The notes under the pieces: model-generated
The model's database searches: none
What the model saw: the letters and a program-made list of their open reading frames with translations, nothing else
Told to the model about the DNA's origin: nothing
Part shown: positions 16,690 to 52,300 of the stretch, one piece after another
How the letters are laid out: each line of letters starts with the position of its first letter
Position numbering within the stretch: position 1 is the stretch's first letter
NCBI GenBank assembly: GCA_023229365.1
Contig: JALNZK010000014.1
Coordinates: forward strand, 6,970 to 70,969
Direction of reading: 5' to 3'
Source of the DNA: Pseudomonadota bacterium
GTDB lineage: Bacteria > Myxococcota_A > Polyangia > JAAYKL01
Length of the DNA stretch: 64,000 nucleotides
Made by a program: the position numbers and the translations under genes

Positions 16690-16745
16690 GATTGGCGGGA
16701 ATGGGGTTTGATCCCACTCCTGCCTATTGTATCTCCCTGGAGAAG
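16690..16745 (+). promoter_or_regulatory. orphan copy of the conserved leader (…CTATTGTATCTCCCTGGAGAAGAAAGAA-ATG) on the plus strand, followed only by an 11-codon ORF
   Basis: Matches the CCCTGGAGAAAAGAAATG leader seen before the 27.3-32.1 kb genes. Confidence 0.3.
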
Positions 16746-16919
16746 AAAGAAATGAAAAAACATCGGACCTATGTTGTCCCTACATAGTTTAGCCTCCGTG
16801 CCCAGAGTAAAGATTATGTGGGACTGAACCCATCATAACCTCCCACATATTTTCTACACCCAGTGATTTTCTGCTCTGGAATTTTTGTTCCGTCATTGCA
16901 GGAGTCAATTGAAAATATG

Positions 16920-17159
16920 TTATACGTTGAATATTGCAATGTCATCTGCAATATCTGCTGATTTCTTTAGTTCTGCTCTTACTAGGGTTCTTGAGATGTT
17001 TTCAAGTTTGTTTATTTTCTGCTGAAGTTCTGTAATAGTTAGTTCCGTTTCTTTTATTCTGTCTTTGAGATATGACAGTTCATTCTTAAGATTTTCAATT
17101 TCTGGATCTGGTTTTATTTCAGATATATAAGATGTTAATTGTGGTAACTTTTTGCTCAT
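16920..17159 (-). CDS. coiled-coil protein
   Basis: Heptad-rich LKNELSYLKDRIKETELTITELQQKINKLEN. Confidence 0.4.
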   Translation of the reverse strand: MSKKLPQLTSYISEIKPDPEIENLKNELSYLKDRIKETELTITELQQKINKLENISRTLVRAELKKSADIADDIAIFNV

Positions 17160-18050
17160 TGTGGTTCCTCGGTTAGAATTCTGTTTATTATCTTATTTAT
17201 AGTATTGGTTTCGTTAAGATATGTCGATTGTAGGATTTGAACCTACTTCTGTGGCTTGAGACCACCGTCTTTACCAATCTAATAAAATACAAATGATAGA
17301 TCTATATTTCCCACGGGCATGATTTTATTAGACCAGACCAAATCGACAATGGGAATTGTTAACATTCTTTGAAATGGCACCAGTGAGATTCGCACTCACG
17401 TAGCCCTACGGCGGCAGATTTTGAGTTTGTTGTTCTCTGGTAACAGGCTGACCCGTCGTGGGTCGATTTAAGCTGACTTTACAGACACCCTCATATGAAG
17501 CAATTAGTCGCTACACGCTGCTGGTTCTTCATAGTTTCTGATACCAGAGATAACCAGAATCGGGGATCGAACCCGAACGGCGCTACATGTGCCAACCCAC
17601 TTCCGGTTTTTGTTATAACTCATCCTGATGATCGGATGTAGAGGGTTTGAACCTCCATTGATCTCATATCAAACATCCGATAGGCTGATTGTTTTTATAG
17701 AGGTATCAACCTATGAATTTAACCTCTTTTTGATTCAAACGTCTTTAAATCTCATCCATTTCTGGATAACCGAATAGTGGAATTTAACCACAATTCAATC
17801 AGACTTATGGAGGTCTTACCCCTGATTTGACCCAGGGATAAGATTATTGTTATTTGCGACAGGAAGTTGAGTAAGTTTCCTGTATGAGTTATATTTGCGA
17901 AGGGTATCAGTCTGATGAGGATAAAATGTTTGTACTAAGTAGGTGCATTCGATGGCTTGTTTCCGTGTCTTGTGGTCCTCCTGTAGTTGTTTGGCCTCAC
18001 CAAGATGTGATTATTGGATCACCGGCCAAAAAAGTTTGAGTTAATAAGGT
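17160..18050. other. non-coding tract rich in tRNA-like fragments and hairpins
   Basis: No ORF of 60 aa or more on either strand. GC is higher than the surroundings. T-arm-like GTAGGATTTGAACCTAC (17230-17246), T-arm plus acceptor strand ACCAGAA-TCGGGGATCGAACCCGA (17553-17576), and a hairpin GACCCGTCGTGGGTC (17452-17466). Confidence 0.5.
17632..17680 (-). ncRNA. tRNA-like mini-element: 7-bp acceptor stem (CGGATGT/ACATCCG), T-arm GGAGGTTCAAACCCTCT and a D-like hairpin, but no anticodon arm
   Basis: Complementarity read directly. Not a canonical tRNA. Confidence 0.3.
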
Positions 18051-22181: not shown

Positions 22182-22487
22182 TTAATCACCATCCAAAAAT
22201 ATATTTGGTAGAAATGTTACGTCTGGTTCGCTCGCAGGAATTAACATACAGTAACCTGGCCTGTAATGACAGCCGTTACCAATTTTCTTGTGATAGTGGG
22301 TGTCACCAAATTTTAGTTCTGGAGACCATGCTCTGCAGATTTCCTCACCCAGAATGCCAACTCGCTGATTTCCAATTCTCCCTTCAGTACAATATAGAAG
22401 ATTTCCCGAAGAAAGAGAGAATGGGCAGATTTTGCTGTTTTCTGTTGTGTCTTCCATTATTTTATCTCCGGGATTAAAGCACGACAT
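22182..22487 (-). CDS. hypothetical protein
   Basis: ORF. Confidence 0.35.
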   Translation of the reverse strand: MSCFNPGDKIMEDTTENSKICPFSLSSGNLLYCTEGRIGNQRVGILGEEICRAWSPELKFGDTHYHKKIGNGCHYRPGYCMLIPASEPDVTFLPNIFLDGD

Positions 22488-23454
22488 ATATCATTATATG
22501 ACAATTTATCATGATGTAGCGGGCATCCTTGTCGTTCTAGCATTTCGACAAGAATCTGATTTAGGTTGTTTGATATGGTGGATGATATCTTGTGGTCCTT
22601 TAGCAGTTCTATGGCCGTTGCCAACTTCAATATAAGTGTTATGTTGTTCATTGTTTTTCCTGTATTTTAACAGTAGATAATGGAAAAATGGGCTTGGGTT
22701 ACTCCCAGGTTAACTATTGGTTTGACCCAATTTGTTAACAATAATAGAATGGTTGTAGAATTGTTCTACAGGGTTGCAGCATTCTGTTTTATAGAGTGCT
22801 GTTTTGTTCTTGATTAATGCCCGGATTAATGTCACACTAATCAGCTTTACCTACCCAGTTACAGCCGCATATAATATGCTGTTAATGCTGTTGCCTGCAT
22901 CATTCCTGGACAGATGTTATTCTGTCGTCATTTGGCAGGGCCGGGTGTGGTTGCCTTGCCTCACGGAACTCATCGGTATAATTACATTTGATGATTTGAC
23001 TATTAAGTGTTTCGGTTTAATATGCAGAAAAAGTAGGTGTTTTGTGGATTTGGTGGAGATATGAGGTGTTGTGTTAATGTTGTTTGATTAACTGCACAGA
23101 CGGTGGGGAGTTAAATTGTAGTTTGTAATTGCAGGTGAGGTGTCCTGGATAACAACAGGGGCGATTTCTGATTTTTTCTGCGCAGATAAAGGCGTTGTGG
23201 AATGGAATGCAGGAAAAACAATGGGGGATCATTGGGGATATAATTGGGTGATATTACATGTTATGTTATTCATTGGATGGTTCGTTGTTTGCATTTTTTA
23301 TTTAGATATGGTCTTGTAATGTTTGCATAGAAGGGCTGCAAATTCCCAGGCGCTTGGATCTGGAGATGAGGTGCCGTTGTCTGATAACATGGCAAATGGA
23401 CATCCTGAGTTGATTTTGGTGCAGATATGTCCAGTGTGTTGATAGTTGTGGTGT

Positions 23455-23724
23455 TTACATGTGGTGTATTGTGTTGTCATTGTTTTTCCTTGGGTTTGTT
23501 GTTAGGCTGCCTGAGTTTAGTAGTCTGGTGAGGTATGAAATTACGTTGTCTTCTATACCGGTGTAGACTGTTGTGGTATTGTTTATAGATAGGGTTACGG
23601 TGTTATGTCCGGTGTGGTTAAGACTGGAAGATAGAATGGATTCTATGATGGGTAGAGAGGTCGGATGTATTGGATATGTCCTGTCTTGGTATGTTAGAGA
23701 TATGTTGGGCGTAATTGTTGTCAT
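23455..23724 (-). CDS. hypothetical Thr/Ser-rich protein
   Basis: ORF. Confidence 0.35.
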   Translation of the reverse strand: MTTITPNISLTYQDRTYPIHPTSLPIIESILSSSLNHTGHNTVTLSINNTTTVYTGIEDNVISYLTRLLNSGSLTTNPRKNNDNTIHHM

Positions 23725-23739
23725 GGGTTATCCGTGTAT

Positions 23740-24066
23740 TTAGTCATCATAAATTTTATTTTCACAATTATAGCAGTGTAATACCAGTGTTATTGCGTCG
23801 TCCATTTCCGTATGTAGTTTACCACCACAGATGGGACAGATAATTTCGCCACACTCTAAACATCTACAACAGTCCATTGGATTCGGATCGTCAATTATTG
23901 CATTACAATTAAAACATTTTATAGTGTGACTTTCTGGAAGCCTCCTTTTTTCTATGTCATAATATTTTATTTTATCAAATTCATTCATTCCCGAATGATT
24001 TTCTCCATGATTCTTATGTGCTCTCATAATAATGCTACGTATCTTGTCTATTATAATTATTGTCAT
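23740..24066 (-). CDS. multi-Cys Zn-finger protein
   Basis: CFNCNAIIDDPNPMDCCRCLECGEIICPICGG. Confidence 0.45.
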   Translation of the reverse strand: MTIIIIDKIRSIIMRAHKNHGENHSGMNEFDKIKYYDIEKRRLPESHTIKCFNCNAIIDDPNPMDCCRCLECGEIICPICGGKLHTEMDDAITLVLHCYNCENKIYDD

Positions 24067-24239
24067 GATTGTTTCAATCTTTGTTTCATTGGATGTTCCT
24101 CTGATACTTGACAGTAACCCACTTCATAATATTATTCCTCAATTTTACGAATGTATTTGTGCATGTCAATACTACACCTAAAATTTGGATAGTTGTCGGA
24201 ATCATCGCAGTTTGATCCTTTTGCCGTGTCTACCATAGT

Positions 24240-24473
24240 CTATTCCACACCCTTCAATTTTCTTTGAACAACTCTATAAATACTACAAATTGACAAAACT
24301 AATTCATCTGGAATTACCAGGATGGGTTCTCCGCAAAATGATGGTTCCCATACAACAAGACCCATGTCTATTAATGCTAAAACTTTATCTTTATCTTCGG
24401 GATTGAACTCTTCAAGCAGTAGTCCTTTACCACTACGATTTTCAATGTATATCTTTAACAATATCTCTATCAT
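24240..24473 (-). CDS. hypothetical protein
   Basis: ORF with ATGA-type overlap to the downstream gene. Confidence 0.4.
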   Translation of the reverse strand: MIEILLKIYIENRSGKGLLLEEFNPEDKDKVLALIDMGLVVWEPSFCGEPILVIPDELVLSICSIYRVVQRKLKGVE

Positions 24474-25270
24474 AGTCTATTCCACCAGTGTTTTTTCGTC
24501 ACGTTTAACCATAGTGTTTTCTTTAGATTTTGTATGGTTTCGTCTTTGGCTGCTATAAATTCCGTTAATTGTTTGTTATGGATGGTAAGCGCTTCGATTT
24601 TCGTACTTTGATCTTCAGTTGTCCACTCTCTTCGGTCTTCTTTTTTGGCATAAACTGTCAACATTTGATTATAGGATTTTATCTCATCATCTAATTTGGT
24701 ATTTAGTTCTTGTATGGTGTTATCGCGATCCGATAATATTTTCTTTAGTGCTTGTATGGTGTTATCCTTGGCTACCATCATTATGCTGTCTGCTGATGCA
24801 ATGCTATGTATTTTGGAGTTTAGATGCTGTATGGTTGCATGTCGTGATTCTATGCAGGCATTGAGTTCATGTATTGCCCGACATGCTGAATACATGTGGC
24901 AGTCAGCATTACAATTGCTGTTGTAGTTGTTGTAGTTGTGGCATTCGGGAATTAGACTTCTTGCAGTTGTCGTGCTAGTGGATTTGGCTGCATGATATGC
25001 GTCTCTATATTTGTTGAGAGACTGGGTTAGTGATTTCACTTCGATCTGTTGTATGTGAATCCTGGTGCACATGTTGTAGTGTTTGCATTTAACTTTGCAA
25101 TTGCTGTTGTAGTTCTGATAAGTGTTGCATTTGGATGGCTTTGTAATGGTGCCTGTTGTTGTTTTAGGATGTTCTATGGTAGTCCCGCATTGTTTGGCTG
25201 ACTTTGTCGTGTGCTTTGATTCTTTGCATTTGTTGCATTTGGTTTTTGGTATGGTGCTCTTGTGTTGCAT
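24470..25270 (-). CDS. repeat-containing protein with duplicated Cys/Asn-rich modules and a coiled-coil
   Basis: YNNYNSNCKVKCKHYNMCTRIH versus YNNYNSNCNADCHMYSACRAIH, and KDNTIQALKKIL versus KDETIQNLKKTL. Confidence 0.45.
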   Translation of the reverse strand: MQHKSTIPKTKCNKCKESKHTTKSAKQCGTTIEHPKTTTGTITKPSKCNTYQNYNSNCKVKCKHYNMCTRIHIQQIEVKSLTQSLNKYRDAYHAAKSTSTTTARSLIPECHNYNNYNSNCNADCHMYSACRAIHELNACIESRHATIQHLNSKIHSIASADSIMMVAKDNTIQALKKILSDRDNTIQELNTKLDDEIKSYNQMLTVYAKKEDRREWTTEDQSTKIEALTIHNKQLTEFIAAKDETIQNLKKTLWLNVTKKHWWNRL

Positions 25271-25299
25271 ATGATTACCTCAGGTCGTGGAATGGATTA

Positions 25300-27100
25300 A
25301 ATCATCTATTTCTTTTTTCCTAGCAGCATATCTATCCATAGCCACAGGACTCCCTGCACATATGAAATAGTGTATGCAGGATATGTTACGGCATTTTCCA
25401 TCATGAATATATGATGAACATGGCTCATACATATGCTAATGATTGCGTTCTGTTGTATTTAATGCTGTGGTTTTCGGTAGGAGATGACGGATTTGGTGAA
25501 TTGAATGGTGAATTATGAAATGCGGTGGGTGATAAGTTTTGGGGCAATTTTGAGGTTATTGTGAGATGAGTTGATGCGCTGTTTAAATATGGTTAGGGAA
25601 TTGTGGCAAGTGGCTTGCCATTAGGTATTTAATTGTTTTGAATGGTGTTATATATGTATTAGGTTCAATCCTTACAACAACACTGATAAAATAGTAATAA
25701 GATTTGGTATAATTAATTCTCTTTTCAACTCAAAAATGATAATGTAATGATGTTCTGTATAATTTTTTATTTGGTTTTTACCTTATTGGGTTAATTGTCA
25801 TGATAGATCATGTGGGATATGATTGGGGGATAGTTTGGGCTTTGTTTCCGGTTAATGTTTTTTGGTGGGATATACTGGGTTAATTTTTTGATTGCGGCTT
25901 AATTATGCCTGATGTATTATATGGTAACACTGCAATATAAGTAAAATGAAGGAATCGAAAAAAGGGTTATTGGCAAAAGGAGAGCATACCTTTATCCGAT
26001 TGCGCCTCATTACTGCCAGGGATTCAAAATCGTTAGCCAAAACGTTAATATCAGTTTCCTTCTATTCTATCCTGACCGATAGGTTTATGTTGTGGTAATT
26101 TTGTCCGGAAATGAGGGTTAAGTGGGCGGCGAAAACACAAATATAACATGTAGTGGTACAAAAGTTGAGATTTAGTTTAAAAAATATGAAAAAAAGTTTA
26201 ACACTAATTTTTTTTTAGTGTGATTTTGTTATACTTTTGAATCGGGGTTCAATTTGGCTTTAATATTAATACTTTTATTTAAATATGGTTTATTTAATGA
26301 TTTATGGAGCGCACACGCATCGTGATGAAGCCGGATATCGATTTATCTACGTTGGTTTTGTAATATAGTTTGTGATGGATAAAATAGGCGCGAGTCTGGC
26401 GTGGTGTTGCGCGTGTGGAAAATGGTTGGATAGATGCTAACTCAATGTTTTTTGAGTTAAGTTAAGTTTTGTTTTCGCTTATTTGATACCGCACTTTTTT
26501 GAGAAAATTTCAATTTTTGTAGTATTTATATGTTTGGGATGATTTCGGAAAATGTAGAATCGTGATAGATTTGTGCTACTAATTCAATTTTATATTCTAC
26601 TGATGATTTAAATCTGGATTGGTGAAATAAGTGAGATACGGATGCAACTAGTTGCAACTGGCAGAATGGGCTTGGATTGAAATAAGGACAGAATGGGCGT
26701 ATTTTCCAGTGGAAATAGTGGGAGTGTGACGTTAATTATAGGTCGGAATGATGAATAAGCAGTGTATATGCCGTTTCTTGACTTGTCCGGACTGGTTGAC
26801 AACTATTTTGGGGCTGATTTGGGCTTGGTTTTTATTTTTGATTTAAAGCCGCGCTAATGTAAAACATGGCTGGATTGGTTTAACTTATAAAGCATGGCTA
26901 TTGCTGGGGTAGATTGAAGAATGCGGCTTTAGCGCGTTAGCTATCGCTATAATAATTGCGCAAACTGGTTTTTGATGAATCAGGTGGTGTTAAGTATATA
27001 TACTTAACAAAATTGCAGTAACACTTATACCAATTGGTATTAGTGTAGTGTGTTAATAATTTGTGTATTTTTTTTACTGTCGTATTATTTGATTAAAAAA
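25300..27100. promoter_or_regulatory. 1.8-kb non-coding region and candidate replication origin or control region
   Basis: No ORFs. G+T skew on the plus strand. AT-rich core about 26160-26310. Perfect palindromes GTTAAGTATATATACTTAAC (about 26993-27012), ATACCAATTGGTAT (about 27028-27041) and GCAACTAGTTGC (about 26644-26655). Direct repeat GGTGAATTGAATGGTGAATT (about 25496). Confidence 0.4.
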
Positions 27101-27103
27101 TTG

Positions 27104-27310
27104 TTATCTGAAGGATCTTGTCCACTGGTATAACCTAGTGAGTGATGTGTTTACCTCCACAATCTTTTTATGTATTGAAATTAGGCTGTCAATACGACTC
27201 CTATTCATTTTTCCGTCACAATTACACTTTATTTGTGATATAATTGTGCTCGACTTCTCAAACTCCTGTTCGATCTCCTCAAACAGGTAGTCCTCTATGA
27301 TTGTCCTCAT
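27104..27310 (-). CDS. small hypothetical protein
   Basis: ATGA overlap with the upstream gene. Confidence 0.4.
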   Translation of the reverse strand: MRTIIEDYLFEEIEQEFEKSSTIISQIKCNCDGKMNRSRIDSLISIHKKIVEVNTSLTRLYQWTRSFR

Positions 27311-28035
27311 TGTATAATTCCAATAAGTTTTAAATACTTGGCCTCATCGCTTTTCAGCAACTCATTGACCACTTTTGGCTTATGTTTTTGTTCTCCATAA
27401 CAACGCTTACATAGCCTGCATGCACCAATACAATTGATATTTATGTCATTTTCAATTGCAAAGTCTGCTGTGAATATGTTGAATGATGCCCGCGACAGTG
27501 GATGCCTGTCGAAGTCCACATCGTTTATCATCGGGTTAGAATGAACAAACGTGTAGTTTGAGGGCATTTTGCTTTCAACTCTCTCAATTATGTCTGGATT
27601 TTTAGTCCACGATGTACATGTTGCATAGTTTACAACAGAACATATGGCAAAATCCACAAGAACATCTCGTTCGTCCTGATAATCTCCATTCCAATTAGAT
27701 CTCCAAGTAAGATCATTATTTAAATGAAAGACAGGAGGATGATCATATACATCTTCCGGGGACAGATCTCGGTTGCGTTGTAGTGCCTGTCCAACAGCAG
27801 GATATATTTGATTTATCCGTGTTGCATAGCACTTTTGGCAAATACATCCTGGTATTTCGTGTCTGGGTTGACATCTGTCGGTCATCGGCCGACCAATTGC
27901 ACGCTTTCCAAACATCTTCCCGGTCATCGTGCTCCAATGAACGCACCCAAGGTCATCAAAAAGTTTCTCCTTTGGGAGGATGTTATAGATGTTCTTCTTG
28001 AGAGCAACCTCTCTACTAATTATGGTTGTTTTCAT
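27307..28035 (-). CDS. Cys-rich protein, possibly the phage Gp37/Gp68 (DUF5131)-like family. Start at MKTTIIS after the GGAGAAGAA leader.
   Basis: PGCICQKCYA resembles the GCxxCYA signature. C-terminal CIGACRLCKRCYG. Low-confidence family call. Confidence 0.45.
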   Translation of the reverse strand: MKTTIISREVALKKNIYNILPKEKLFDDLGCVHWSTMTGKMFGKRAIGRPMTDRCQPRHEIPGCICQKCYATRINQIYPAVGQALQRNRDLSPEDVYDHPPVFHLNNDLTWRSNWNGDYQDERDVLVDFAICSVVNYATCTSWTKNPDIIERVESKMPSNYTFVHSNPMINDVDFDRHPLSRASFNIFTADFAIENDININCIGACRLCKRCYGEQKHKPKVVNELLKSDEAKYLKLIGIIQ

Positions 28036-30803: not shown

Positions 30804-30886
30804 CCAAGTTACTGCCTGGTGCAGGCATATCAGTCATACATGGGCTGACATGCTATCTGCCCGTTAAAAAATTAGAGTGATAAGGT

Positions 30887-31470: not shown

Positions 31471-31517
31471 TTTCTTCTCCAGGGACATCAGTCTAGCATG
31501 CTGATGTCCTATCTGTG

Positions 31518-31805: not shown

Positions 31806-31866
31806 TTCTTTCTTTTCTCCAGGGATAGCAGGTTGTCATCTGCTACCCTATCTGGGTTAAAAAGGA
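31806..31866 (-). promoter_or_regulatory. promoter/leader unit: TTTTTAA box, CCAGATAG, inverted repeat GGGTAGCAG/CTGCTATCCC, then CTGGAGAAAAGAAAGAA-ATG
   Basis: Read directly. One of at least 9 homologous units (others near 28036-28090, 28365-28410, 29197-29250, 29618-29665, 30312-30365, 30804-30885, 31471-31525, 32089-32145). Confidence 0.5.
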
Positions 31867-32088: not shown

Positions 32089-32744
32089 TTATTTTTCTCC
32101 AGGCATGACAGATTGATTCTGCCATGCTATCTGGGAAACGATGAGAGTTAGGTGTGTACTAACTCCCTGACTATTTTACCCACAGTGCGATACTGTAGGT
32201 AAACGTCTAGCCAGGTGTTACCCTGACAGTATTCTACCTTCTTGCCACCGTTAAACATCTCTATGGTTACTCTCCACACAGAGGTGCTACATGATGCTAA
32301 GTAAGCATCTAAAACCAACTGCTTCATTTAATCAGCCCAATACATCCCACCCATAATGCTATGTTCATCAATACCATGTTGAGTGCAAATAACCACTCAA
32401 TCTTAAGATTGTATTCTCGTCTTGTCATGTTGTTCTCCAGTGATACTCTGGCTATATGAATGGAAGAAAAAAAGCATCTATATAGCCTCATAATATCACA
32501 AATCATCCTCACCTTCTACCCGGATAAAAAAAAATTTCACTAAATCTACCAATTATTATAAAAAACAAAACATATATATCGTTATTATATATTGCAGTCG
32601 AGTTTATCACCTATCTTACCCACATTATGTTATGGGATGTAAAAAGCCGAAAAGGCCGAAGAAATAATTTCTTGATATTATCACTATTTTTGCCGGGGTT
32701 TCGTTACGCAATCATTATAATGCTGGACATCCATACATTCGTGT

Positions 32745-34101: not shown

Positions 34102-35646
34102 TTGACAAAATCCAAAAAAGAGTTTAATGAGTTTAAGATAAAGCCCGGGGAGACTTTAGACGGGAAAGATCTGATCCGGTTTAAGTTGGATTTGATTAAG
34201 GGGAAATCAGATCCGGTTTGGGCGGTCCAAAATATTTTGGGATTTGGAGATCTGTTCCCCTGGCAGGAAGAATACCTGAGATTGTTTTACCGGAATATTT
34301 ATGATGCCAGTTTAATGCCGATAAGAGATGCATATCTATCAGCGGGCCAGCGTAGTGGAAAAACTATGTGGGCTGCAATGATTGGGTCATATGACTTTTT
34401 TAACGTGGTGACTATTCCAGAACCACAAAAGTTCTTCGGGGTTAAAAATTCACAGAAGCTTTTTGCCACCTGCATGAGTACCAGCGGGAAGCTTGCGGAG
34501 GATGGAATTTATGCGCACATGCTAAATGCCATTGAAGCAAGCGAATGGATGAATCAGTGGTTTGACATAAGATCTGTGACCTCTCCTATACCCCAAATCA
34601 GTGTTGATGATAAACAAGTGTATGCCCAGGTATTAGGTTCCTGGATGAATACAGCAGTTGGCAGGACCAACTTCTGCGTATTGCTGGACGAAATAGATTA
34701 TTTTGAGGAATCTACTTCTAAACGGTCTGGAATGGAGGTATATTCCAGGATGACAAAATCCAGGGACACCTTAAGAGAATGGGGGCATCTGGTTGCAATT
34801 TCGTCTCCAAAGTCTATATCCGGTCCAATTTTGTCATTGGTAAGAGTAGCACAAAAACGTATTGAGGAATTTGGCATAAATGGAACCGACACAATTGGAT
34901 TTAATAAGCCCGTATGGGAACTAAATCCAGATCCGTTCTTTTCATTCCCGGAATTATGTAAGCGATATGCCCATGATATGATTGCGATGTGGAGAGACTT
35001 TGGATGCAAACCCGAAATGGCAGGTGGCATGCAGTTTCCTGAAGGCATATTCATGGATGAGACCCTGACTAACATATTAAAGGAAAAGGTCCGTCCGAAG
35101 TTTCAATACCCCCATGTCATGTACATAGATCCGGCTGCAAGATCAGATAAATTTGGGATATCCGTTGGCTGTAGGGTGCCATTTAAAGGAATGGTGGTAG
35201 ACGGCACAACATATTTTAAGAAGAAAACGGGCGACCCGTTTATCATGCCGTCTGATGTCTGGGACTTTATAAATGAAGCAATCCCAAGATGTAATGTCCG
35301 ATACTTTTGCTTTGATACCTGGATGTTCACTGAAATCCTGGAGCGAGTCTGGAAAAAGCATGGAATTAAGCCAGAACAGCATTTCGTGACTAAATCCGAT
35401 TATGATACCTGGAGGTCCTATCAAAGCCCTAACGCACCACACCCGATGCGATTGTGCTACGATAAAGAACTAAAGGACGAAGCCGATCAGCTCATAGTTA
35501 AGGAAGGCAAACGCGGACATGTGGTAGATCATGCCTGGAACCAGTATAAAGATCAGTCGGATACTGTGGCAGGCGTCTGCTGGTTCCTAACGAATTTTGA
35601 GGTCGAATCAACTGTAGTGCCGTATATCGGGCTTCAAATAATTTAA
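34102..35646 (+). CDS. terL: terminase large subunit (ATPase plus nuclease)
   Basis: Walker A SAGQRSGKT, Walker B VLLDEIDYFEE, and C-terminal nuclease-like YIDPAARSDKFGISVG. The in-frame stop at 34096 forces a TTG (or other non-ATG) start at 34102. Confidence 0.8.
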   Translation: MTKSKKEFNEFKIKPGETLDGKDLIRFKLDLIKGKSDPVWAVQNILGFGDLFPWQEEYLRLFYRNIYDASLMPIRDAYLSAGQRSGKTMWAAMIGSYDFFNVVTIPEPQKFFGVKNSQKLFATCMSTSGKLAEDGIYAHMLNAIEASEWMNQWFDIRSVTSPIPQISVDDKQVYAQVLGSWMNTAVGRTNFCVLLDEIDYFEESTSKRSGMEVYSRMTKSRDTLREWGHLVAISSPKSISGPILSLVRVAQKRIEEFGINGTDTIGFNKPVWELNPDPFFSFPELCKRYAHDMIAMWRDFGCKPEMAGGMQFPEGIFMDETLTNILKEKVRPKFQYPHVMYIDPAARSDKFGISVGCRVPFKGMVVDGTTYFKKKTGDPFIMPSDVWDFINEAIPRCNVRYFCFDTWMFTEILERVWKKHGIKPEQHFVTKSDYDTWRSYQSPNAPHPMRLCYDKELKDEADQLIVKEGKRGHVVDHAWNQYKDQSDTVAGVCWFLTNFEVESTVVPYIGLQII

Positions 35647-37503: not shown

Positions 37504-38610
37504 ATGGTATTCCAGTGGAAACAGGAAGACGTTTTGCTTTCTGAAGGCGATGTTGTCAAAGCTGGTACTTGGCACGGAAACAATGTCGTTGATAATAAGC
37601 CATATGTCTCTACTTTCACTAATTCTGATGTAAGGAAGATCTATGACAGAATTCCAAAGGGATTAATTCCGATTTATGTAGATCTGCATGGCAGGAGAGG
37701 AGATCGGAGTGAACCCGATGGATATGCAATGAGCTTTGGAATATCAGAAGACAGCAGTAAAATTGCCCATAAAGGATTTGTGTATAATTTGGATGCGCAA
37801 AAGGCAATTGTAAGCGGGGATAACGAGTGCTCTCCAGAATTTAGTACATTAATTGATTCAAAAGGAAATGCTGATAGAACTCTTACTGCACTTTGTTATA
37901 TTCCCAATTCTGCGATGAAAAATGATGTGAATTTTATGTTCGAAAAATTTGAAGAAGCTCCAGAAAAAGGGGCAGACAAGACAGATGGAAATGCTGGAAA
38001 TATTTCCGGACAAGATCAGAAAAAGGAGTCTGGAAATGATGCTAAGGATAAGTTTGCCGGGTTGTTCGACGGGGGAAAGAAGGCAGAACAAGCACCGGTA
38101 GAGGTAGATTATAATAAGATTGTTAGTATGACAATAGATGCATTAAAGCCGTTTCTTACCGCTGGAGGGAATACTACTCCTGGTGTTTCTGATGGTGGTA
38201 AGAAGGAGGAATCTAAAGGCGGTGATAATGTAGATAAGAAGACTATAAAGCAAGATGGGGGTTCTGATCCGGGAGTAGATGCTTTAAAAAGCAGACTTGA
38301 TGAACAGGGCGCCATGCTTGATGGTATGATGGACGAAAAGATCGAGGCCCTTGTAAATCAGATTAAAGGGTTTGGTGTGTCCGATCCAATGTCATTGATT
38401 CCGGCTGGAGCTTCGAAGAAGGGCACTATTGAGTTTCTGACCAAAACAAAGGATCTTAGACTGGATTTGATCAAGTTAAACGGTGTTCCACAGAATCTTG
38501 GTGGTGGTGAATCTTCGAAAGCTTCTAGGATGGAATTTGAGAAAACTATGACAGAACTTGGGTTTGGAGACAAACATTATACGGAAATGTTTCCGGAAAT
38601 GTATCAGTGA
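37504..38610 (+). CDS. prohead protease domain fused to a Lys/Gly/Asp-rich scaffold-like region
   Basis: N-terminal about 150 aa globular region, then low-complexity GGKK/DGG repeats and a coiled-coil. Position between portal and MCP. Confidence 0.45.
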   Translation: MVFQWKQEDVLLSEGDVVKAGTWHGNNVVDNKPYVSTFTNSDVRKIYDRIPKGLIPIYVDLHGRRGDRSEPDGYAMSFGISEDSSKIAHKGFVYNLDAQKAIVSGDNECSPEFSTLIDSKGNADRTLTALCYIPNSAMKNDVNFMFEKFEEAPEKGADKTDGNAGNISGQDQKKESGNDAKDKFAGLFDGGKKAEQAPVEVDYNKIVSMTIDALKPFLTAGGNTTPGVSDGGKKEESKGGDNVDKKTIKQDGGSDPGVDALKSRLDEQGAMLDGMMDEKIEALVNQIKGFGVSDPMSLIPAGASKKGTIEFLTKTKDLRLDLIKLNGVPQNLGGGESSKASRMEFEKTMTELGFGDKHYTEMFPEMYQ

Positions 38611-43302: not shown

Positions 43303-46300
43303 ATGGTGGATCCTAAAAAAAATATCAATGATAATGTAAGAGTTAAGATCTTGCTTGACGCCGCAAAGAAAGGCGATGAGAATCTTGAGCACATTAGAAC
43401 GCGATATAAGGATGCCATAAAGGAGTATGGGGCCGATGAAGACATCATACTTGTTAATCCTAAGCTGGTGAGTGATCGCAAAGAGCTTAATGACATGATG
43501 CAACATGTCATGCTGGATAAAACTTTTGCTGTGGATACCGAGGTAAATCCTAGGGCCGGAAAACCCGGGACTATTCAAATTGCATCTAGATCAGGTGTAC
43601 ATACTATTGCGGTTAATGCATTTAGAGAAAACGAAGCGGATATGACATATCTTAGAAATAAGATAGGGTCGTTGTTAAACCGGGATGACGTGCATTCATA
43701 TTACCATAATAGAATGTTTGATATGGACTTTCTCACCAGGGATGGGTTTAATCTGGCATTGACAAATTCAGGGGGGGAAGTTACAGCACATGATACAGTT
43801 GCATTGGCATCCAGACTTGGGAAGGCAAACTTGCTTGCTAATCCAGAAATGGGAAATTCTCTGGCATCATTTGTACTGAGATCTTTGGGAAAATATCTGC
43901 CTAAGAAGTTGTCTGGGTCTGGATTTGGATTTAACTATAATGTTGAGACATCCAAAACCAAAGATTTTGATAAGTGGTTTCTTAGGTATGGTGCTGGAGA
44001 TGCACTAGCACTGTATGAAGTGGTATCTAAGTATTATGGAGAGCACAATGATCTTAAGAACCTGAAGAATATTGGAGCATCCAAGGATCAGATTGATTTT
44101 ATAAATAAGATTGATGAGATAGAGCATGCAAAGAGATCAATGTTTAGGCCACCGCCTAGTGTTCAGGATTTCATGGAAGGACGGAATATTATAGCAACCA
44201 GGGTTAAAAAGGGAAATGATGGGAAGTTATATGTTGAAAGTTATTTGTCACCGTCTGATGAATCCCAAAATGCAGTGATGAATTACCTAAGCGACAATAA
44301 TATTTTAGATATTAAAAAAAAGCACGAAACAGGAATATTGGAAAAGGCAGCAGCAGTAGGAGTAAAACTAAAAAAAGGAGAAATTGCAGAGGAAGTAAAT
44401 CTAAAAGCAGAAAGAGAAATAGCAAGTTATCTGCATACAAACCACGGAATAGACATTTATAAAGCAGTTGCAGATGCATTATCCGGAACTGCAAAGACCG
44501 ATGTAAAATCCGGGATTAATCCAATTGCAAGGATGTATGCAAAGGGTGTAGCCGGAAGACTTGGGATGTTTAGATCCAACCGGGTGTATGTATCTGATGC
44601 ATATCGAAACAAACCTGGGCAGGGCGGATCATATGCTAAATATGCCAGTGCATACAGCAAGGACAACAAGATTGGAATTGGATATATTCCGGAAATAAGA
44701 AGCGGGGATTTTTCAATTGTAAAGGCATTCAGACAGATGTATGAAGCATCTCCCGAATACCTGATGAAATCTGTGGGGCACTTTGTTAAAGGGGATATAA
44801 ACAAGGGAAATGTAGAATCTGCAACATCTGACATATTTAATAGGGTAAAGAGTCTGCCTACCGATATAAACGAGGTAAAGAATTATTTTGGTGCATTGGG
44901 AATTTCACCTGATGTTATTGATGCAAACCCGGAGATGTGGATTAGGGATTATCATAGACATGGCCTTGTGGGAACATGGCTTGGACTTAGTAATGTGGCA
45001 AAAGGATTGACTGGAAAGAAAAGTATAGAACGAAATGTGGTTGGTGCAATTAAACAGGTTGGGTTTGATCCTACAACCGGAGATCCTATTTATGCAAGGA
45101 AGTTACAGGAATCGAAGTCTGAAATATCGGAGTCCGGATTAAACTCGTTGCTTAATGGAGTATATGAATCGTTTGCCGGGATAAAAATAGCAAAACATAG
45201 TGTTCCAGGATTTACTCCCGGAAAGTCTGCTGCTGCATTTGGATCGTTGCTTGGTAGTGGAAGAGCTGTTGAAATTATAACAAAGATGGGATTACCGGAA
45301 AGTGTGGCTGCCATACCAGGAAAGTTTAGATTCAGACAGCAATTGATGTCATCTGCTGTTAATTATGGTGCGGCATATGAGAACATGGACGAGCGGATGC
45401 AATCCGTAAATGCAATCAACACACCCGAAATGAATGAGTTATATGGGGAAACAGAGCTGCTTAACAAGATGCCTATACGATCCAGGTTTAAAGAAGGAGA
45501 TGTTGATGAATCACATAGAGAACGGTTGAGATCATTGGGATTTGAACCTGAAAAGATTGAAGAACTGGTTGCAAATGGCGGAGAAATATTAAGAGAGGCA
45601 CTGACATCCCCGGTATTGTATGGAAAAGGAAACGAATGGTGGAAACAGTCCAGAATTATTGTTACAGATGATGTAAAGCAGAAGTTTACTGACTTGTGGG
45701 AAAATATTGAGAATTATTCGCCTGAAGTTCAGAATAAGATACGATCTGCTCTTGCTATAGGAACAAAAGGGCCGTTTAGAGATGCAAACGGACTGGTGCA
45801 GGTTGGAGATCTTGATACCAGGATGGTGGGACATAATAAGAATTATGAGTTATCCACAGGGTTCTATCAGGGAACTGTAGGTCAGGAAATAACATCTATG
45901 CTGACTGATAAGCAGTTTAGACATGAGGCATTTATTGAAAATATACCAAAGATGATTCCAGAAATTTATGCAAGCGGCGATAAGGGAATTACACCCGGTG
46001 GAAGATCGCAATATATAAAAGACTCCTATGATTTTTTTGCTCAGATAGGACTGCTTAAGAGCATTCCGGATAAAAAAGTGGGAATCAAAGCAGCAAAAGG
46101 CATCAAAAACACCATATTAACTGAAATGAGTTATAGGAAGGCATATGGGAAAAATGTACTTAGTGATGCTGAAGTTCTGAAGATGTCTCGTTTGTTTAAT
46201 TTAGTGATGTCAAAAAGAGTTGCCAGAGACGAAACTATAATGAGGGCAGATCTAGACAAAAGTCTTGATTATATAGGGAATATTAAGAACGAGGTTGGAT

Positions 46301-49300
46301 ATAACCCCAATGTATTGCATGGATCTTATAGAAATTATAATGAAGAAACAGGAATGAGTACCATTGTACCATATCAGACATTATCTACACTCCCGACGAT
46401 GAGTGAAAAGGAAGCCAGGAAACTGGAAGGAAGTTATATAAACAGAGTTAAGGAACTGTCTGAAGTAATAAGGCCGAAAGAATTGTTGCAAGTAGAAAAG
46501 TTTATTTCTGGAATAGAAAAGGGATATGCCCCAAATGCAACTGAGTCTGTTAATGCAGCATCAATATATGACACGGTGAAGAAGCTGGGATTGAATGAAG
46601 ACGATGCATATTCGTTGGTAAATAATGCCACAACTGAGGCTTATGATATAGGACAGGCGTTTTCTCCGGAATCAAAAATTCCTGCTACCTTGGCAGTCAG
46701 CAGAACGTTATTTCCACCATTAAAAAAGGCAATTGCCTCTGTTATTCCAGATGTTGCACCGGTCATTTCAGATACAGGAGTTGGAAGATCTCATTCTCCG
46801 CTACTGAACGCAATATTTGATATATCGTCTGAGACTGGAGGACGAACTCCATTAATGTCTCACCCCATTGGTATAACCGATCCGGATGTTTTAATGTCTA
46901 TGCTGGAGTCTGGTGCAATAACGGATAAAGAATATGCAAAGGCTGTTGTGTTGTCTGCGAAACCAATTACAGATCAGAAAGGAACTAGATGGGAAAAACA
47001 TATTCCGAGGGCATTTGCAGATATTTCTAAAGTTGATTTCTCCAGTGGATTTATACGACCGCCTAATGTAGGAGATGAATATATTCAGACACGTGGATCT
47101 GGTCCATCTCGTTTATACTACAGTACATTCCGGGGAATGATGGGAGAAACCTTGTCTGTAATGGCTGAGAATGCAGCACGTAAGAAACAAGATTTGAGAA
47201 GGCTCGAGAGCGAACGGGTTTTAGATAAGCTTGCTGGATCTCATTCCATTCAGGTTGATTACTTGAAAGGACACAAGGTTGCTACCGGTGCAAATGCTGT
47301 GATGGAAGAAGGAAAGGTTGGAAATCTTGTTAAGACATATGAGACATATAACAAGGTTTCTGATGCTATAGGAGAGAGACACAGCGATATAATAAAGCCA
47401 GGATATGTTCCTAAGAAAACAATATCAAGAAATCGCATACTTGGGGAATATTCTCCAGAAACAGCAAATGTTAGATATAATAGAGACATTGGACAGATAA
47501 TTGGAAGCGTATCTGATTATGCTGGAATGGCTAAAGATGTTGGAGGATTTAAAGATAGCAAGGAGGCATTAAAGAAGGCTCCTGGAATCATATCAAAGTT
47601 TTTAAACATATGGGGTCCAAGGAAACCAGACACTTGGAAAAGCAGTGATGCCAGATTGTTTGCTCCTGGATATTATCCAGAAAATGATGTGTCTGATTTG
47701 GTTTCCATAGATTTTTGGATGAACAAAGAGTTGGAGCGGGTATGGAGTGGAAAGACTCCATTTAGTCTGATGCCGAAGGGAGAGAACGAAGATATAAAAG
47801 GGTCTGATATATTTGGACTGGACTTTACCAGGGAAACCACAACCGAGAGTTCAAAGGACTTTAAGAGAATAAGCAGAGATGTAATGGAGAAATCAATTCT
47901 CCAGTCCATTAAGGAATCTGATAACCCGGTTGAACTTATAAATCAAATGCATAGATCTATTGAAGGATTCAATCAATGGAAGAAAGAAGGGGTTGAGGGA
48001 ACTTATCCATATATTCCAGATTACTTGGCATTGTCTAAATCACCAGGTATGAGTTCTGGATTGGGAACTTCGCTATTTGACTGGCTTACAAAAGGCAATA
48101 CAAAGGAGTTATCTGCTGCATTTTCTGAGAATGAGAAAGGATATGGTACGTTGTCCAGTATGCTTGAGGAGGTTGCGGAGATACAAGAAAGCGGGATGTT
48201 AAATGGAAAAAGGATAGGGAAAGACGCATCCGATTATGATGTGGTATCTCACGTAATAAATAAATACAGGACTGGAGAAACCGGAGAAATAAGTCTTGAA
48301 TATCTTGATGCGGTTAACTTGGTTTCTGGATATAGACCATTAAGACCTGAATATGGAATACAACATGTTAATCCATATTATAAGGGAATACCAAGGAAGT
48401 TGTCTGAATATAATCCACGCGATTATGGACTTGGGATGAAAAGCGGGAGATCATCTGTGCTTACTGATCTGTACTCAGATGTCATTGATTACAGTAAGGG
48501 TAGAAGTATTGGATTTAGACTGCCTAAATTTGGAAAAGGAACTCCAAATATAAATGGAATTACATTATCTGGTAAGGCATTTGGATTATCGGTGGTAGGC
48601 GATGGCGGACCTGAAATATCAATCTCAGATGATGGGACCATTAGAACCCACAATACGGAAGAAGTGGTTAATTTTAGATCTCCTACTACTGTAATACCAA
48701 AGAATAGACTTCCACACTTTGCTTTTGGAACCCCAGACTTCAACAGAAATGACATAATACGGTCTATTGCGGAATCTATTGAAAATAGTTTTGAAGAATA
48801 TAATGCTCTTGGATCAGATTTATTATCAACAAAGGGAGTCACAAGGACCACCACACCGTCTGAAATCCAGTCGATAAAAAGTGTGGTGGCGGAACATATG
48901 AATTCCGGATTGGCTAAATCCGGGAAGCATCCTGAAAGGGCTGGGTTGTTTAGGACGGAAGGAAGTGGAATAATCAGTGGTATTGGAAGATTTATGGACT
49001 TTGGTAATACTGATTATACGCTTAGTGGTCCTGGTAATGTAAGAAAAGATATTGGGCGGCATGATATCATGGGACAAGATATATCTGGTAGAATCCAGAG
49101 AATGTCGGATGTCACAAATATCACAGATAATAGATTTATACGAAATAAAAACCGGGGGATTGCAGATGTATATGAAGATGCCACCATTCCTGGAATTCAA
49201 AAAGTAGTAACATCATTGCCTCAGCCTGGTGGAGTCGCACAATCCGGAGCAAGATTGTCTGCAACAGAAATTAATAGTCTTAAAGATATGCTGGGGGATT

Positions 49301-52300
49301 TAAATGCGTCGATGAGAGATCTTGGTAGCGATACTGATTATGGTGGATTCATTAAGAGTCTTGAAACATCAATTGGGGCAAACAGGGGTATTGATGTAAC
49401 AAAAGGTGTGGCAGAACAGTTTAAGCTACTTAGTGATCAGCTTAGGATTATTGTTCCGGAATTGAAGTCGTTTTCTGATGTTGCAAAGATAGAGAATATT
49501 GCAAAGGCAAGAAAGGTATCTCCTGAATATCAGGAAGAAATCATGAAAAAGGGGTACTTTAAGGAAGGCCCTATAAGCAGCATCAGATACATGATGGCAA
49601 AGAGGAGAGATCCCGGATTGACTCCGGAAGAATGGAATGCAGATAGGTTTGAAGCATCATTTTCAGAAAGCAGAGATCAGAGATTAGCTAGGTGGTTAAA
49701 GAAGAGGGCTTTGAAGGGGACCGAAGAAACTGAGACATTTGCATTCCAAGCCAATTATGCATTGGAGTCTCCAGCAGCTAAGTCGGAAATGACAAGGGTG
49801 CAGTCAGAGTTCTCTGCATTTGTATCTGAATTGTCTAAGATTGACAAAAATATTAAAATAAATACTCAGACGGGGACAAAATTCTCACCGGGCGAAAAGT
49901 CAAAACAAGTTGAGAGCGTCTTTGGGGAACAACTTGGGATGAATGTAGAGGTGAGTAAAGAAGCTCTGAGATTGAAGTTTGGCAAAGATTATAGGAAGAT
50001 ATTACAGGGTATGTTTGGGCCGTCTTTAATTGATCAGCCAGGATATATTTCAAATGCAAACCTGGATATTGTGGAAGGCAGGAGAACCACAAGACCTACA
50101 GAAGAATCATCTGGATATTTATCTGCATCTTCCACTCTTCAGGGATATGGCAGAAAAATGACGGCATTGAGCATGGGTGCAATGGGTACCTACTTTTCAA
50201 TAACTGGTATCTATAGTGTGATATCTCAAGGCGTTCGTATGGTAACCGATTCACTGAAGGATCTTAGTTCTCAGATGAAATCAATTGCCATAATGGATAA
50301 CTTCAGCAATGGGCTACTTAGATCTAAGGATATAATGGCTACGATGGGAATAACCCAGCAGGATTTCATTAATGGGTGGAAAGGCATAACATCTATCCAG
50401 GCATCGTTCCAGGTATTTTTGGGATCTATTGCTGCTAAGATGATGCAGGTAGGAGAAGACGGAACTTCAGCGTTCAAAACCATTGCTGATACACTGATGA
50501 AGGCATTTACAGATAAAAGAAGCATAGATGAATTGGTGAGTTCTGTTAAGACACTGGTTGTGGCGGGTGCAGAATTGCTACCGATGTTTATTGGGTTTGC
50601 TAAAACTCTTGCTAATCTGGTTGCTGGAATTGCAAAAAGTCCGTTTGCTCCACTTATTACTGGATTTACGCTTATTGCGTTTGTAATGCAACCGGTGCTT
50701 ACACTGATTGCTGTTACACTGGAAGGATTTGCATCATTGCTTACCCTTATGGCATTCATGGGTCCGGCAGCATCAACCGGAGCACTTGGAATGACACAGT
50801 TTGCAGCTGGTACCACAAGTGCAGCTGGTGGTGTAATGGTTCTTAATGGGGCATTGGGAACTACACTTGCAATGTTATCAACTGTAGTTGTGGTTGTAGG
50901 AGCTGCTGTTGCTGCTTGGCAGTTACTAGGAATGGCTATAAATTTTGCATCAAATAAAGAGGTTGTTCCTACCCCGGTTGGATTAATTGGGGGTGCACTT
51001 GGATTCAATAAGGGTGGATTGGTGGAGTGTTTTGCAGAGGGAGGAGAAAAAGGAACCGACATCGTTCCCTCAATGCTTACACCCGGGGAGTTTGTAGTTA
51101 GGAGAGATTCTGCTAAGAAGTTTGGATATGACAGGCTTGACAAAATTAATAAAATGGCAGATGGAGGTGTTGTAGGCGGACTGATGCCATCATCCTCTCC
51201 TGTTATGGATTCAGATAACCGGATGAATATAAACAATAAGTTTGGGTTGTTGACAAATGTGAGTGAGGCAGGAGCCAATGCAAATAAAAATACCGCAAAG
51301 ACGTTATCTGATGCAAGTGGAGGGAAATATCTTAATGTTAAGTTGTATGGAGAAGAAGGGCAGATCGGCGGTAAAGGCGATGTAGAAACTGAAGGTGGAT
51401 ATCTAGGAAATCTAATGGATACTCTAGGAAATGCAGCAGATGAATTTGCGAAGGGGCTATCTGATACATTTACCCCAAGTGGACTCAAGAATGTAGTAAC
51501 AACTGGAGCAGCTGGAGCAACGTTGTCTACTCCATTTAATGAACTTACTAAAAAAGTAAAGGAATGGTGGGATAAAATAGAATGGCCTGATGTCGGAAAA
51601 TGGATTAAAGAAAGATTTAAGTTTTTGGATGATACAGATCTTGGAGAAAAATTTAGGGAATTTAAGGAAAGGTTAATTGAGTTGACTACCGGAAAGGAGA
51701 GAACCGGTAGAACTGAGAATGTAGACATCGATAGGAATGAAAAGATAAAAGGAAGGAAGACACCTGGGGAAGAAAGTCTCGAAAGTAAAACTAATAAAAG
51801 GGTTGTAGACTGGTTTAGAGGGGATAAAGGATTAGAAGGCTGGGAAAAGGTAGATACAGGAACCGAAAAACAACCTAGCAGACCAAAGATGACCTGGTCA
51901 TATGAGAATGAATATGGGAATGTAGAGGCAGAAAAACCAATTTATGAACCAGGAAGAAATGCATTACCAAATCAAATATGGGAGGTAACTCCAGAAGGAG
52001 GTATAGGAAAAGGAGTTGAAACACCAGAGAGCGGGTTTAAAACCGCAAAGCCACCTGTTGGAGTTTCAACTACCCAAGAGATTATTGGTGGTGCTAAAGG
52101 AGGTGGTATTCTTGGTGGTATATTAGCTGCTGTGGATGAGATACTTGTAAAGGGAAAATCTCCGGTAGAGGCAGCACCTACGGTTGGAGTGAGTGCAGCA
52201 GCAGGAGCGGGACTTGGAGCTGCAACAGCTGCATTTCCTATTTTGGGTCTTCCAGTAGCTATGCTTTCTCATGAGTGGATGGCAAACTTCGGCGCAAATG

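Follow-up and report, generated by a model that had tools for sequence, protein, structure and literature searches.

The stretch of DNA considered here, hereafter the window, comprises 64,000 nucleotides of contig JALNZK010000014.1 and represents most of the ~76-kb genome of a tailed virus, whose sequence recurs identically in ERZ27247350 k141_2421670 and in a Logan contig of SRR6484787. Between its early and middle gene modules lies an 1833-bp gap without open reading frames (ORFs), which is a real and distinct non-coding element. We tentatively favor the view that this gap is a control region between the two modules, combining a candidate terminator, operator-like dyads and a predicted restart promoter; a role as a replication origin is also possible. 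The gap occupies the same position in six related viruses, carries a bipartite promoter-like motif, here termed element P, and has the base composition of the four-fold degenerate sites of the genes downstream of it. In kind the region is ordinary, namely regulatory and/or origin DNA of a novel virus lineage. Reference phage collections contain no close relatives of this lineage, and the ten late proteins scanned gave no match to Pfam; any foothold in its expression or replication is therefore useful, and element P, the operator-like dyads and a turning point of the strand skew at the early/middle boundary offer entry points to its promoters, regulators and origin.

Genomic setting and anatomy of the gap

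The minus strand of the window carries the genes from 1 to 32.4 kb, which encode a family B DNA polymerase, a Sak4-like ATPase, a Cas4-like nuclease, a ThyA-like protein, RadC and many small proteins, and the plus strand carries the structural genes (32.7-64 kb). Within the minus-strand arm the early operon runs from 32.4 to 27.1 kb, and the middle or replication module (ThyA-like protein, family B polymerase, Sak4-like ATPase and nuclease) extends leftwards from 25.3 kb, so that the gene-sense strand at the gap is minus. The gap is bounded by the stop codon of a 68-aa gene (27104-27310, minus) and the start codon of a 266-aa gene (24470-25270, minus). It is the longest stretch of the window lacking an ORF of at least 65 aa on either strand, the runner-up being 890 bp, and this bears out the initial annotation, which had singled out a 1.8-kb ORF-free region as the longest non-coding stretch. 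The same annotation had called the rest of the genome saturated, which overlooks other ORF-poor stretches at 22652-23739 and 17160-18049. The principal features of the gap are:

25271-27103, no strand: ORF-free gap from the last early gene (68 aa) to the first downstream gene (266 aa), G-poor and C/A-rich in the minus-strand sense
27095-27100, minus: T6 run 3 nt past the 68-aa stop codon, a candidate for oligo-T termination of the early operon
27068-27075, plus: T8 run, which would stop antisense transcripts before the early genes
27027-27040, no strand: 14-bp perfect palindrome ATACCAATTGGTAT
26988-27009, no strand: 22-bp perfect palindrome TGTTAAGTATATATACTTAACA with the centre TATATATA, the longest perfect palindrome of the window
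26704-26716, plus: TTCCAGTGGAAAT, whose complement contains ATTTCCACTGGAA, equal to the 13-nt core of the Pyrococcus furiosus origin recognition box (ORB) oligonucleotides ORB1 and ORB3, with GGGAG 3 nt downstream
26662-26698, plus: CAGAATGGGC in two copies at a distance of 27 bp, immediately upstream of the mini-ORB-like core
26643-26656, no strand: 14-bp perfect palindrome TGCAACTAGTTGCA
26157-26306, no strand: AT-rich core of 19.3% G+C, with T7 (26189-26195) and T6 (26179-26184) runs in sense and a T9 run (26208-26216) on the plus strand
25642-25679, minus: element P, TGTTGTA-N17-ATATATAACACC, bipartite and promoter-like, present in all viruses whose sequence reaches this far
25280-25432, minus: possible Cys-rich ORF of 50 aa without a family match

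The gap shows no sign of encoding a conventional product. In two public contigs of identical sequence the gene callers place only one 29-aa ORF in it, and reading through TAG, TGA or TAA opens no frame. A tblastx comparison of both gaps with all relatives and with the rest of the window matched the block around P alone and recovered no gene remnants, and the small ORFs of the gap have no Pfam match. If the Cys-rich 50-aa ORF is real, the gap could shrink to 25433-27103. Another 50-aa ORF, on the plus strand, was considered as a counterpart of a ribbon-helix-helix (RHH)-like ORF in one relative (L004) and rejected as unrelated. At the level of RNA, ARAGORN (tRNA and tmRNA) and Rfam 15 at gathering score found nothing in the window, and Rfam at a permissive threshold over 22300-27400 gave only chance-level matches in the gap. 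Sliding-window folding of both strands returned no consistent z-scores, with significance at the palindromes only, and the minus-strand RNA would be nearly structure-free (minimum free energy of -1 to -20 kcal/mol per 150 nt).

The plus strand of the gap (A.282, C.113, G.231, T.374) has a GC skew of +0.34, and C is scarcer there than anywhere else in the window, in agreement with the G+T skew reported at the outset. The AT-rich core, which had been placed at about 26160-26310, was likewise recovered at 26157-26306 as the AT-richest 150-bp segment of the 64 kb, and the second and third AT-richest windows of this size (25626 and 26970) also fall within the gap. The core holds an inverted repeat, ACACTAA/TTAGTGT (26201-26221), and could be either a two-way terminator or insulator or an unwinding element; comparable mid-gap elements of A-runs and T-runs occur in four relatives (L004, L006, L007 and L008). 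Palindromes are similarly concentrated here. The gap holds three of the ten palindromes of at least 14 bp in the window (the 22-bp one and two of nine 14-bp ones) in 2.9% of the sequence, against an expectation of 0.22, and 300 shuffles yielded no palindrome of 20 bp. The three perfect palindromes listed initially are all present, with the correction that the first spans 22 bp and not 20 bp.

Conservation of the gap and its islands in related viruses

The 240-aa protein encoded next to the gap has 18 homologues of 53-95% identity, among which are those of six related viruses (L003, L004, L006, L007, L008 and L011; 53-78% identity). In all six the 240-aa gene is followed by a gene of ~66 aa and then by an ORF-free gap, which lies at the same position as in the window, measures 1.36-1.85 kb where fully sequenced and is always G-poor on the gene strand (G 0.11-0.165). 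Absence from relatives, named at the outset as a point that would count against the candidate origin, is thus not what was found. The synonymous sites of the 240-aa gene are saturated in every pair (30-48% identity), and at such divergence unconstrained DNA should be unalignable, as most of the gap indeed is; yet the gap itself has been kept in every lineage, which implies selection.

Wider searches added little to this set. The gap is not present in distant IMG/VR relatives (25-30% identity), searches of IMG/VR with four neighboring proteins found no close relatives, GTDB genomes yielded no relatives, and one metagenome DNA scan returned only duplicates of loci already known. Nothing homologous to the 266-aa downstream protein turned up among 5.8 billion proteins, and hence no closer relative of this gap was available for footprinting. 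For the 240-aa neighbor, a PDB profile search, an AlphaFold model (predicted local distance difference test, pLDDT, 70) and Foldseek revealed no fold relative, and the divergence of the ~66-aa neighbor is too great for interpretation. Of the seven short public contigs with the 240-aa gene, five (L005, L007, L009, L011 and L012) end inside the gap, at differing positions, which suggests population-level variation or assembly difficulty.

Against this largely unalignable background, element P is the sole element present in all viruses sequenced that far. It follows the consensus TGTTGTA-N17-(A)TATAWR, with one copy each in the window virus, L003, L004, L006, L008 and L011 (6/6). It is confined to the gap, lies always on the gene-sense strand upstream of the downstream genes, and retains an exact 17-nt spacer; in the window one site was found against 0.14 pattern matches expected. 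The cargo genes of the region, namely a 109-aa ORF in L008 and the 50-, 266-, 77- and 108-aa genes in the window virus, are downstream of P and run in the sense direction. As the cargo is always in this arrangement, we read P as a putative sense promoter of the downstream module. The inclusion of promoters among the alternatives of the initial annotation thereby proved the best-supported part of it, the only element in every virus sequenced that far being promoter-like. A tRNA-like phage attachment site (attP), considered for GGTTCAATCC inside P, was rejected since conservation of the N17 spacer does not extend to the other viruses.

Other islands have a narrower distribution. Motif A (TAGATCCATCT; ATCRYAGATNCATCT; ACGCAAACTATCRTAGATMCATCTCTA), with the dyad TAGAT-NN-ATCTA, occurs only in the gap, in 1-3 copies per relative, and as 2-3 direct copies of irregular spacing (44-211 bp) in L004, L006, L007 and L008. 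Palindrome B, GCAGAATA-NN-TATTCTGC, is found in three relatives. At the position equivalent to that of motif A, ~100 nt into the gap, the window virus has its 22-bp palindrome, which is a candidate operator and/or TATA element. A block with the mini-ORB-like core is common to the window virus and L003, and contains TCCACTGGAAAAT and the repeated word GCCCATTCTG, which likewise appears two times in the corresponding homologous stretch of the L003 gap, the second time as GCATTCTG. We infer that the dyads of this virus and its relatives are putative operators. Small ORFs in the gaps of L004 (11324-11716, minus strand of the locus) and L008 (9766-10095) have N-termini that look RHH-like by eye, without a Pfam match, and are candidates for proteins that bind the dyad motifs.

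A putative control region between the early and middle modules

These observations can be joined in a scheme in which early transcription would end at the T6 run 3 nt past the last early stop codon. The next ~1.4 kb would then act as a spacer that insulates in both directions and bears dyad-symmetric protein-binding sites, represented in the window virus by the 22-bp and 14-bp palindromes and in the relatives by motif A and palindrome B, together with an AT-rich core having oligo-T runs on both strands. Finally, element P (TGTTGTA-N17-ATATATAA) would restart transcription into the downstream genes. The two parts to be expected of such a region thus appear to be present, in the form of a likely termination signal after the upstream operon and a conserved, sense-oriented promoter-like motif before the downstream one.

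Several regularities point to T-runs as transcription terminators. T5-T6 runs lie 3-31 nt from the gap start in five of seven viruses, and T6-T7 runs directly follow several stop codons. Within genes, codon shuffling leads one to expect 69 +/- 6.6 sense-strand runs of T5 or longer and 42 are observed, whereas A runs show no depletion, and such avoidance of oligo-T and not of oligo-A fits oligo-T termination. In the spacer there are 5 sense and 13 antisense runs of T5 or longer. Scans for sigma-70 promoters and hairpin terminators stayed at shuffle level.

A number of points weigh against this interpretation. Most of the spacer lacks sequence conservation, so that its function is deduced from its retention alone, and ~1.4 kb is long for a region made of terminator, operators and promoter. 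Motif A is absent from the window. The geometry of P would suit a bacterial sigma-70 promoter (TTGTAA-N17-TATATA) equally, as well as an archaeal TATA box plus initiator on the opposite strand, and the roles assigned to promoter and terminator follow from the logic of the sequence. An archaeal host is favored, yet a RuvB-like protein encoded by the relatives and a RadC closest to that of Bacillota are bacterial signals. Furthermore, DNA that is the AT-richest of the window and includes a perfect mini-ORB core would be more in character for an origin than for simple regulatory DNA.

Origin of the strand skew

The initial annotation had taken the strand skew as a pointer to an origin. In the genes downstream of the gap, however, the four-fold sites of the sense strand have the composition A.452, C.194, G.136 and T.218 in the window virus, with G at.10 in L003 and.089 in L004. 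The composition of the gap equals that of these sites, being G-poor and A-rich in sense, and the early genes upstream differ. The GC skew at four-fold sites (GC4 skew) shifts from upstream to downstream from +0.11 to -0.17 in the window virus, from -0.14 to -0.42 in L003 and from -0.13 to -0.44 in L004; in L008 the shift is less marked, and L006 does not show it. It follows from the match with the four-fold sites that the plus-strand G+T excess is the neutral composition of the whole downstream module, which is visible in the gap because no protein is encoded there. The G+T skew is therefore not a functional signal of the region, and the argument from skew to origin falls, as what seemed local is a module-wide property of synonymous sites. 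More generally, local non-coding skew should be compared with four-fold degenerate sites before an origin is called.

The junction itself is another matter. Cumulative GC skew, proposed earlier as a check on the origin, has a local maximum at 27149, on the upstream edge of the gap, and its minima elsewhere, at 13808 (inside small genes) and 32623 (in the divergent intergenic region). In L003 (10943), L004 (10909) and L008 (8690) it peaks no more than ~100 bp from the gap start, so that in four of five viruses the curve turns sharply, at a maximum, where the last early gene ends. Origins are by the usual rule placed at a minimum, and by that rule the maximum does not mark one. The early/gap junction is thus a real compositional boundary, either replicational or transcriptional.

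The gap as a candidate replication origin

The main alternative, and the one proposed initially, is that the gap is a replication origin, in which the AT-rich core would unwind, a viral or host (Orc1/Cdc6) initiator would attach to the palindromes, the CAGAATGGGC repeats and the mini-ORB-like core, and the gap promoters might activate the process, as promoters do at the T7 and T4 origins. We regard this as doubtful. The idea is kept alive by the clustering of the three AT-richest 150-bp windows and of the palindromes described above, by the identity of TTCCAGTGGAAAT with the archaeal core, by the conserved position immediately upstream of the replication-gene module, by the 2-3 direct copies of motif A in four relatives, and by the skew turning point at the gap edge in four of five viruses. 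That turning point, however, is a maximum and has terminus-type polarity, and the skew is shared with the synonymous sites of 25 kb of downstream genes.

The search for ORB repeats, also proposed earlier, turned up one perfect core and no array. This copy is the only perfect one in the window and the only one in the gap with up to two mismatches. Among the relatives, the L008 gap has a perfect core and a weaker one, the homologous block of L003 has one with two mismatches, and no such core occurs in the gaps of L004, L006, L007 and L011. With up to one mismatch the core matches ten times in the window, against 2.8 expected, and near-copies lie inside late genes; a near-perfect one, TTCCAGTGGAAAC (37510-37522, plus), stands at the very start of a 368-aa late gene. 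In the work from which the P. furiosus ORB oligonucleotide sequences were taken, the binding of Cdc6 to a single mini-ORB was weak in vitro, and in vivo such a site showed no preferential binding (PMC1904270).

No initiator gene was found either. Pfam and PHROGs scans of the neighboring and larger window proteins found no Orc1/Cdc6, MCM or Rep, with ~12 kb of the genome outside the window not covered; besides the polymerase, the left-arm proteins over 300 aa are the AAA_24/Sak4-like ATPase and a 333-aa protein without a Pfam match, and the conserved 240-aa neighbor has no detectable fold relative. Thus, among four traits of an ORB-type origin, the AT-rich unwinding element is present, and an ORB array, an initiator gene and a skew minimum were not found. 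The window copy also lacks iterons (at least three direct repeats of 17-22 bp): no k-mers of 7-10 nt exceed shuffle counts in the gap, and a repeat search gave chance-level pairs only. Two repeats noted initially do occur, though both near chance: of the ten GGGTTAA sites of the window three fall in the gap, a slight excess, and the supposed tandem repeat GGTGAATT is trivial and below the tandem-repeat threshold:

25495-25514, no strand: GGTGAATTGAATGGTGAATT, the initially reported tandem repeat

For an origin of the T7/T4 type, TATA-like sequences and AT-rich DNA are both present. An R-loop-primed origin was judged unlikely, because the strand that would give G-rich RNA has 13 oligo-T runs. 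On balance, then, the AT-rich core, the palindromes, the ORB core and the position next to the replication genes sustain the candidacy of the gap, and the polarity of the skew, the lack of iterons in the window copy and the failure to find an initiator gene speak against it. A more specific version, which we consider unlikely, would make the gap the origin of a new lineage of archaeal tailed viruses, with the mini-ORB beside the AT-rich element recruiting host Orc1/Cdc6 and the skew turn marking where forks start or stop. If true, an ORB-type origin would have been mapped in such a virus from sequence alone, and its strand asymmetry tied to its mode of replication.

Comparison with known origins and control regions

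In T7 the gene 1-1.1 region combines the promoters 1.1A and 1.1B with an AT-rich origin, and in T4 oriF and oriG pair a middle promoter with an unwinding element; the origins of both phages lie at early/middle boundaries. Like these boundary regions, the gap is non-coding, leads from an early operon to a module for DNA metabolism and replication, and has a promoter-like element and AT-rich DNA. Unlike them, it is five to ten times longer, it shares no sequence or protein homology that we could find, and it is served by another polymerase and promoter type, probably archaeal; priming transcripts or initiation in the gap would be hypothetical.

The control region (D-loop) of animal mitochondrial DNA is a proven site of an origin and of promoters. 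It resembles the gap in being non-coding over a kilobase, with a fast-evolving bulk, short conserved blocks and promoters and a strong G+T/A+C strand asymmetry. The systems are nevertheless unrelated, and in the viral gap the roles of origin and promoter are putative. The dyad-symmetric sites of 12-22 bp, and the one to three direct copies of motif A beside AT-rich DNA in the relatives, recall the iterons of ori-lambda and the OL and OR operators. In contrast to lambda, the site in the window virus is unrepeated, no initiator or repressor gene overlaps or adjoins it, and the copies of motif A are irregularly spaced.

The likeness to the Pyrococcus oriC (PMC1904270) lies in an AT-rich stretch and a 13-nt core identical to the P. 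furiosus ORB core ATTTCCACTGGAA, followed by a short G-rich run. The differences are that Pyrococcus has several inverted ORBs around the unwinding element and the gap a single core, that no orc1/cdc6 gene was found adjacent to the gap, that four of six relatives lack the core, and that the skew has a polarity opposite to that of an origin.

Non-coding RNA, filler DNA and other interpretations

It is quite unlikely that the gap houses one or more non-coding RNA genes, such as a G-poor, unstructured sense RNA of 0.3-0.8 kb, extending from the position of the palindromic TATA or motif A to the oligo-T runs of the core and acting as a sponge for protein or RNA, or else short G+U-rich antisense RNAs. 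TATA-like sequences do open a 905-nt sense interval without T5 or longer runs, which closes at T7/T6 and has similar counterparts in L004, L006 and L007, and the sense RNA would be almost free of structure; but such an interval is not unusual, about 1.1 runs being expected per 900 nt from base composition by our estimate, and the G-poverty is explained by background composition. Folding z-scores are significant at the palindromes only, conservation is limited to short islands, Rfam offers nothing, and the antisense strand has 13 oligo-T runs. The remaining support for this alternative comes from the end of the gap in the relatives, which is closed by an RNA-like block (block C) with a TATA-like box before it:

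22770-22985, minus: block C, conserved, G-richer and RNA-like, outside the initially annotated region; in relatives it closes the gap

Block C, of ~200-250 nt, reads GGGAATGATGCAGGC ... ACAACTGGGTAGG-AAAGCTGAT. It ends the gap in L003 (12155-12360), L004 (12385-12560), L006 (11905-12110) and L008 (10255-10500); in the window virus it is 2.4 kb further on and so outside this gap, within the second ORF-poor, G-skewed stretch at 22652-23739. It has no Rfam match, and its consensus structure from five sequences is weak (-7.3 kcal/mol), with compensatory changes at 7 of the 20 base pairs predicted; the block may represent a novel viral RNA or a leader. From its position a cassette (23740-25270) appears to have been inserted between P and block C in the window virus, and the 109-aa ORF of L008 fills the same slot.

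That the gap is mostly functionless spacer at a recombination hot spot, made of decayed or filler DNA at neutral composition in which only P and a few sites are functional, is improbable. It would account for the equality of composition with four-fold sites, for the variable downstream gene content among relatives, with cassettes inside the gap (the opposite-strand RHH-like ORF of L004, the 109-aa ORF of L008 and the 266-, 77- and 108-aa genes of the window virus), for the absence of any homologue of the 266-aa protein in 5.8 billion proteins, and for the contigs that break in the gap at differing positions. Translated searches, however, found no pseudogene remnants, palindromes and AT-rich minima are over-represented, and the maintenance of at least 1.36 kb (where fully sequenced) in seven lineages despite saturated synonymous divergence is hard to square with viral compactness.

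A Rho-dependent terminator, in the form of a giant Rho utilization (rut) site that ends early transcription, would apply to a bacterial host only and is very improbable. Directly after an operon that lacks a hairpin terminator, the sense RNA stays rich in C, poor in G and free of structure for more than 1 kb, and the RadC and RuvB-like genes indicate bacterial gene flow. On the other hand, the evidence favors an archaeal host and archaea lack Rho, the same G-poverty is seen inside translated downstream genes, where Rho cannot act, and the failure of every structural protein scanned to match Pfam is unusual for phages of well-studied bacteria. A packaging (pac/cos) site, which was also entertained initially, is unlikely because the terminase-like gene (34102-35646) is ~7 kb away across the early module, and the contigs that break in the gap do so at differing positions.

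Affinities of the virus and its host

DNA similarity searches found no match among 50,697 phage records, no phage record matched the portal-like or capsid-like proteins, and 0/10 late proteins scanned matched Pfam. The lineage is a new family of tailed viruses, probably of anaerobic archaea. That the host is an archaeon we regard as rather likely, given that: 1) The DNA polymerase is closest to the family B enzymes of Thermococcales (E 1e-25) as against Escherichia coli Pol II (6e-17) and RB69 (5e-12). 2) Its best viral matches are haloarchaeal tailed viruses. 3) A Methanomicrobiales virus carries a distant member of the 240-aa family. 4) A TrmB-type regulator is encoded. 5) The first late gene of the window virus, L003 and L006 has a TATA-like box 22-23 nt before an ATG without a Shine-Dalgarno sequence. 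6) Oligo-T, unlike oligo-A, is avoided on coding sense strands. 7) The scans for sigma-70 promoters and hairpin terminators did not rise above shuffle level. Signs of a bacterial connection include, besides those mentioned above, the presence of DUF932 and DUF2637.

Other observations in the gap and the window

Two further elements lie near the downstream end of the gap:

25604-25620, minus: hairpin TGGCAAGCCACTTGCCA, ~22 nt downstream of the TATA-like half of P
25437-25448, minus: ACGCAATCATTA, a 12-mer that recurs in the TATA-like element lying 23 nt before the first late gene (32706, plus)

The latter is possibly a second promoter, for the cassette of the 266-aa gene. Just upstream of the 108-aa gene is a solitary CRISPR-repeat-like sequence, GTATCAGAGGAACATCCAATGAAACAAAGATTGAAAC (24071-24107, minus), which scores 30.5 bits with the Rfam model CRISPR-DR7 (gathering 37) and could be a repeat-derived anti-CRISPR RNA or a clue to the host. 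This class of repeat is common in Methanosarcinales and anaerobic methanotrophic (ANME) archaea and in anaerobic bacteria. Against GTDB arrays its best matches, which include an array of Methanoperedenaceae, reach 31/37 and spread over Methanosarcinales-type archaea and anaerobic bacteria; being so partial and so scattered taxonomically, they failed to identify the host.

The second-longest ORF-free stretch (16700-18050, minus) contains tRNA-like T-arm and acceptor modules, for example at 17222-17290, and a minihelix at 17632-17679. ARAGORN found no tRNA there and the Rfam tRNA model scored 21.7 and 19.3 bits (gathering 29); the stretch may represent a degenerate cluster of tRNAs or else a group of tRNA-like elements. 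In the structural arm a 3330-aa ORF (43303-53295, plus) has no Pfam match, and a 318-aa late gene contains a 99-nt tandem repeat (58864-59115, plus; 2.5 copies, 72% matches) that probably encodes a repeated fiber-like domain. Several early genes (31475-31515, 31815-31854 and 32095-32133, minus, with a similar case at ~30840-30860) are preceded by CAGATAG, a hairpin with a stem of 8-10 bp, the Shine-Dalgarno sequence CTGGAGAA and ATG. This pattern has three exact matches against 0.02 expected, and such units may be repeated leader, processing or regulatory modules.

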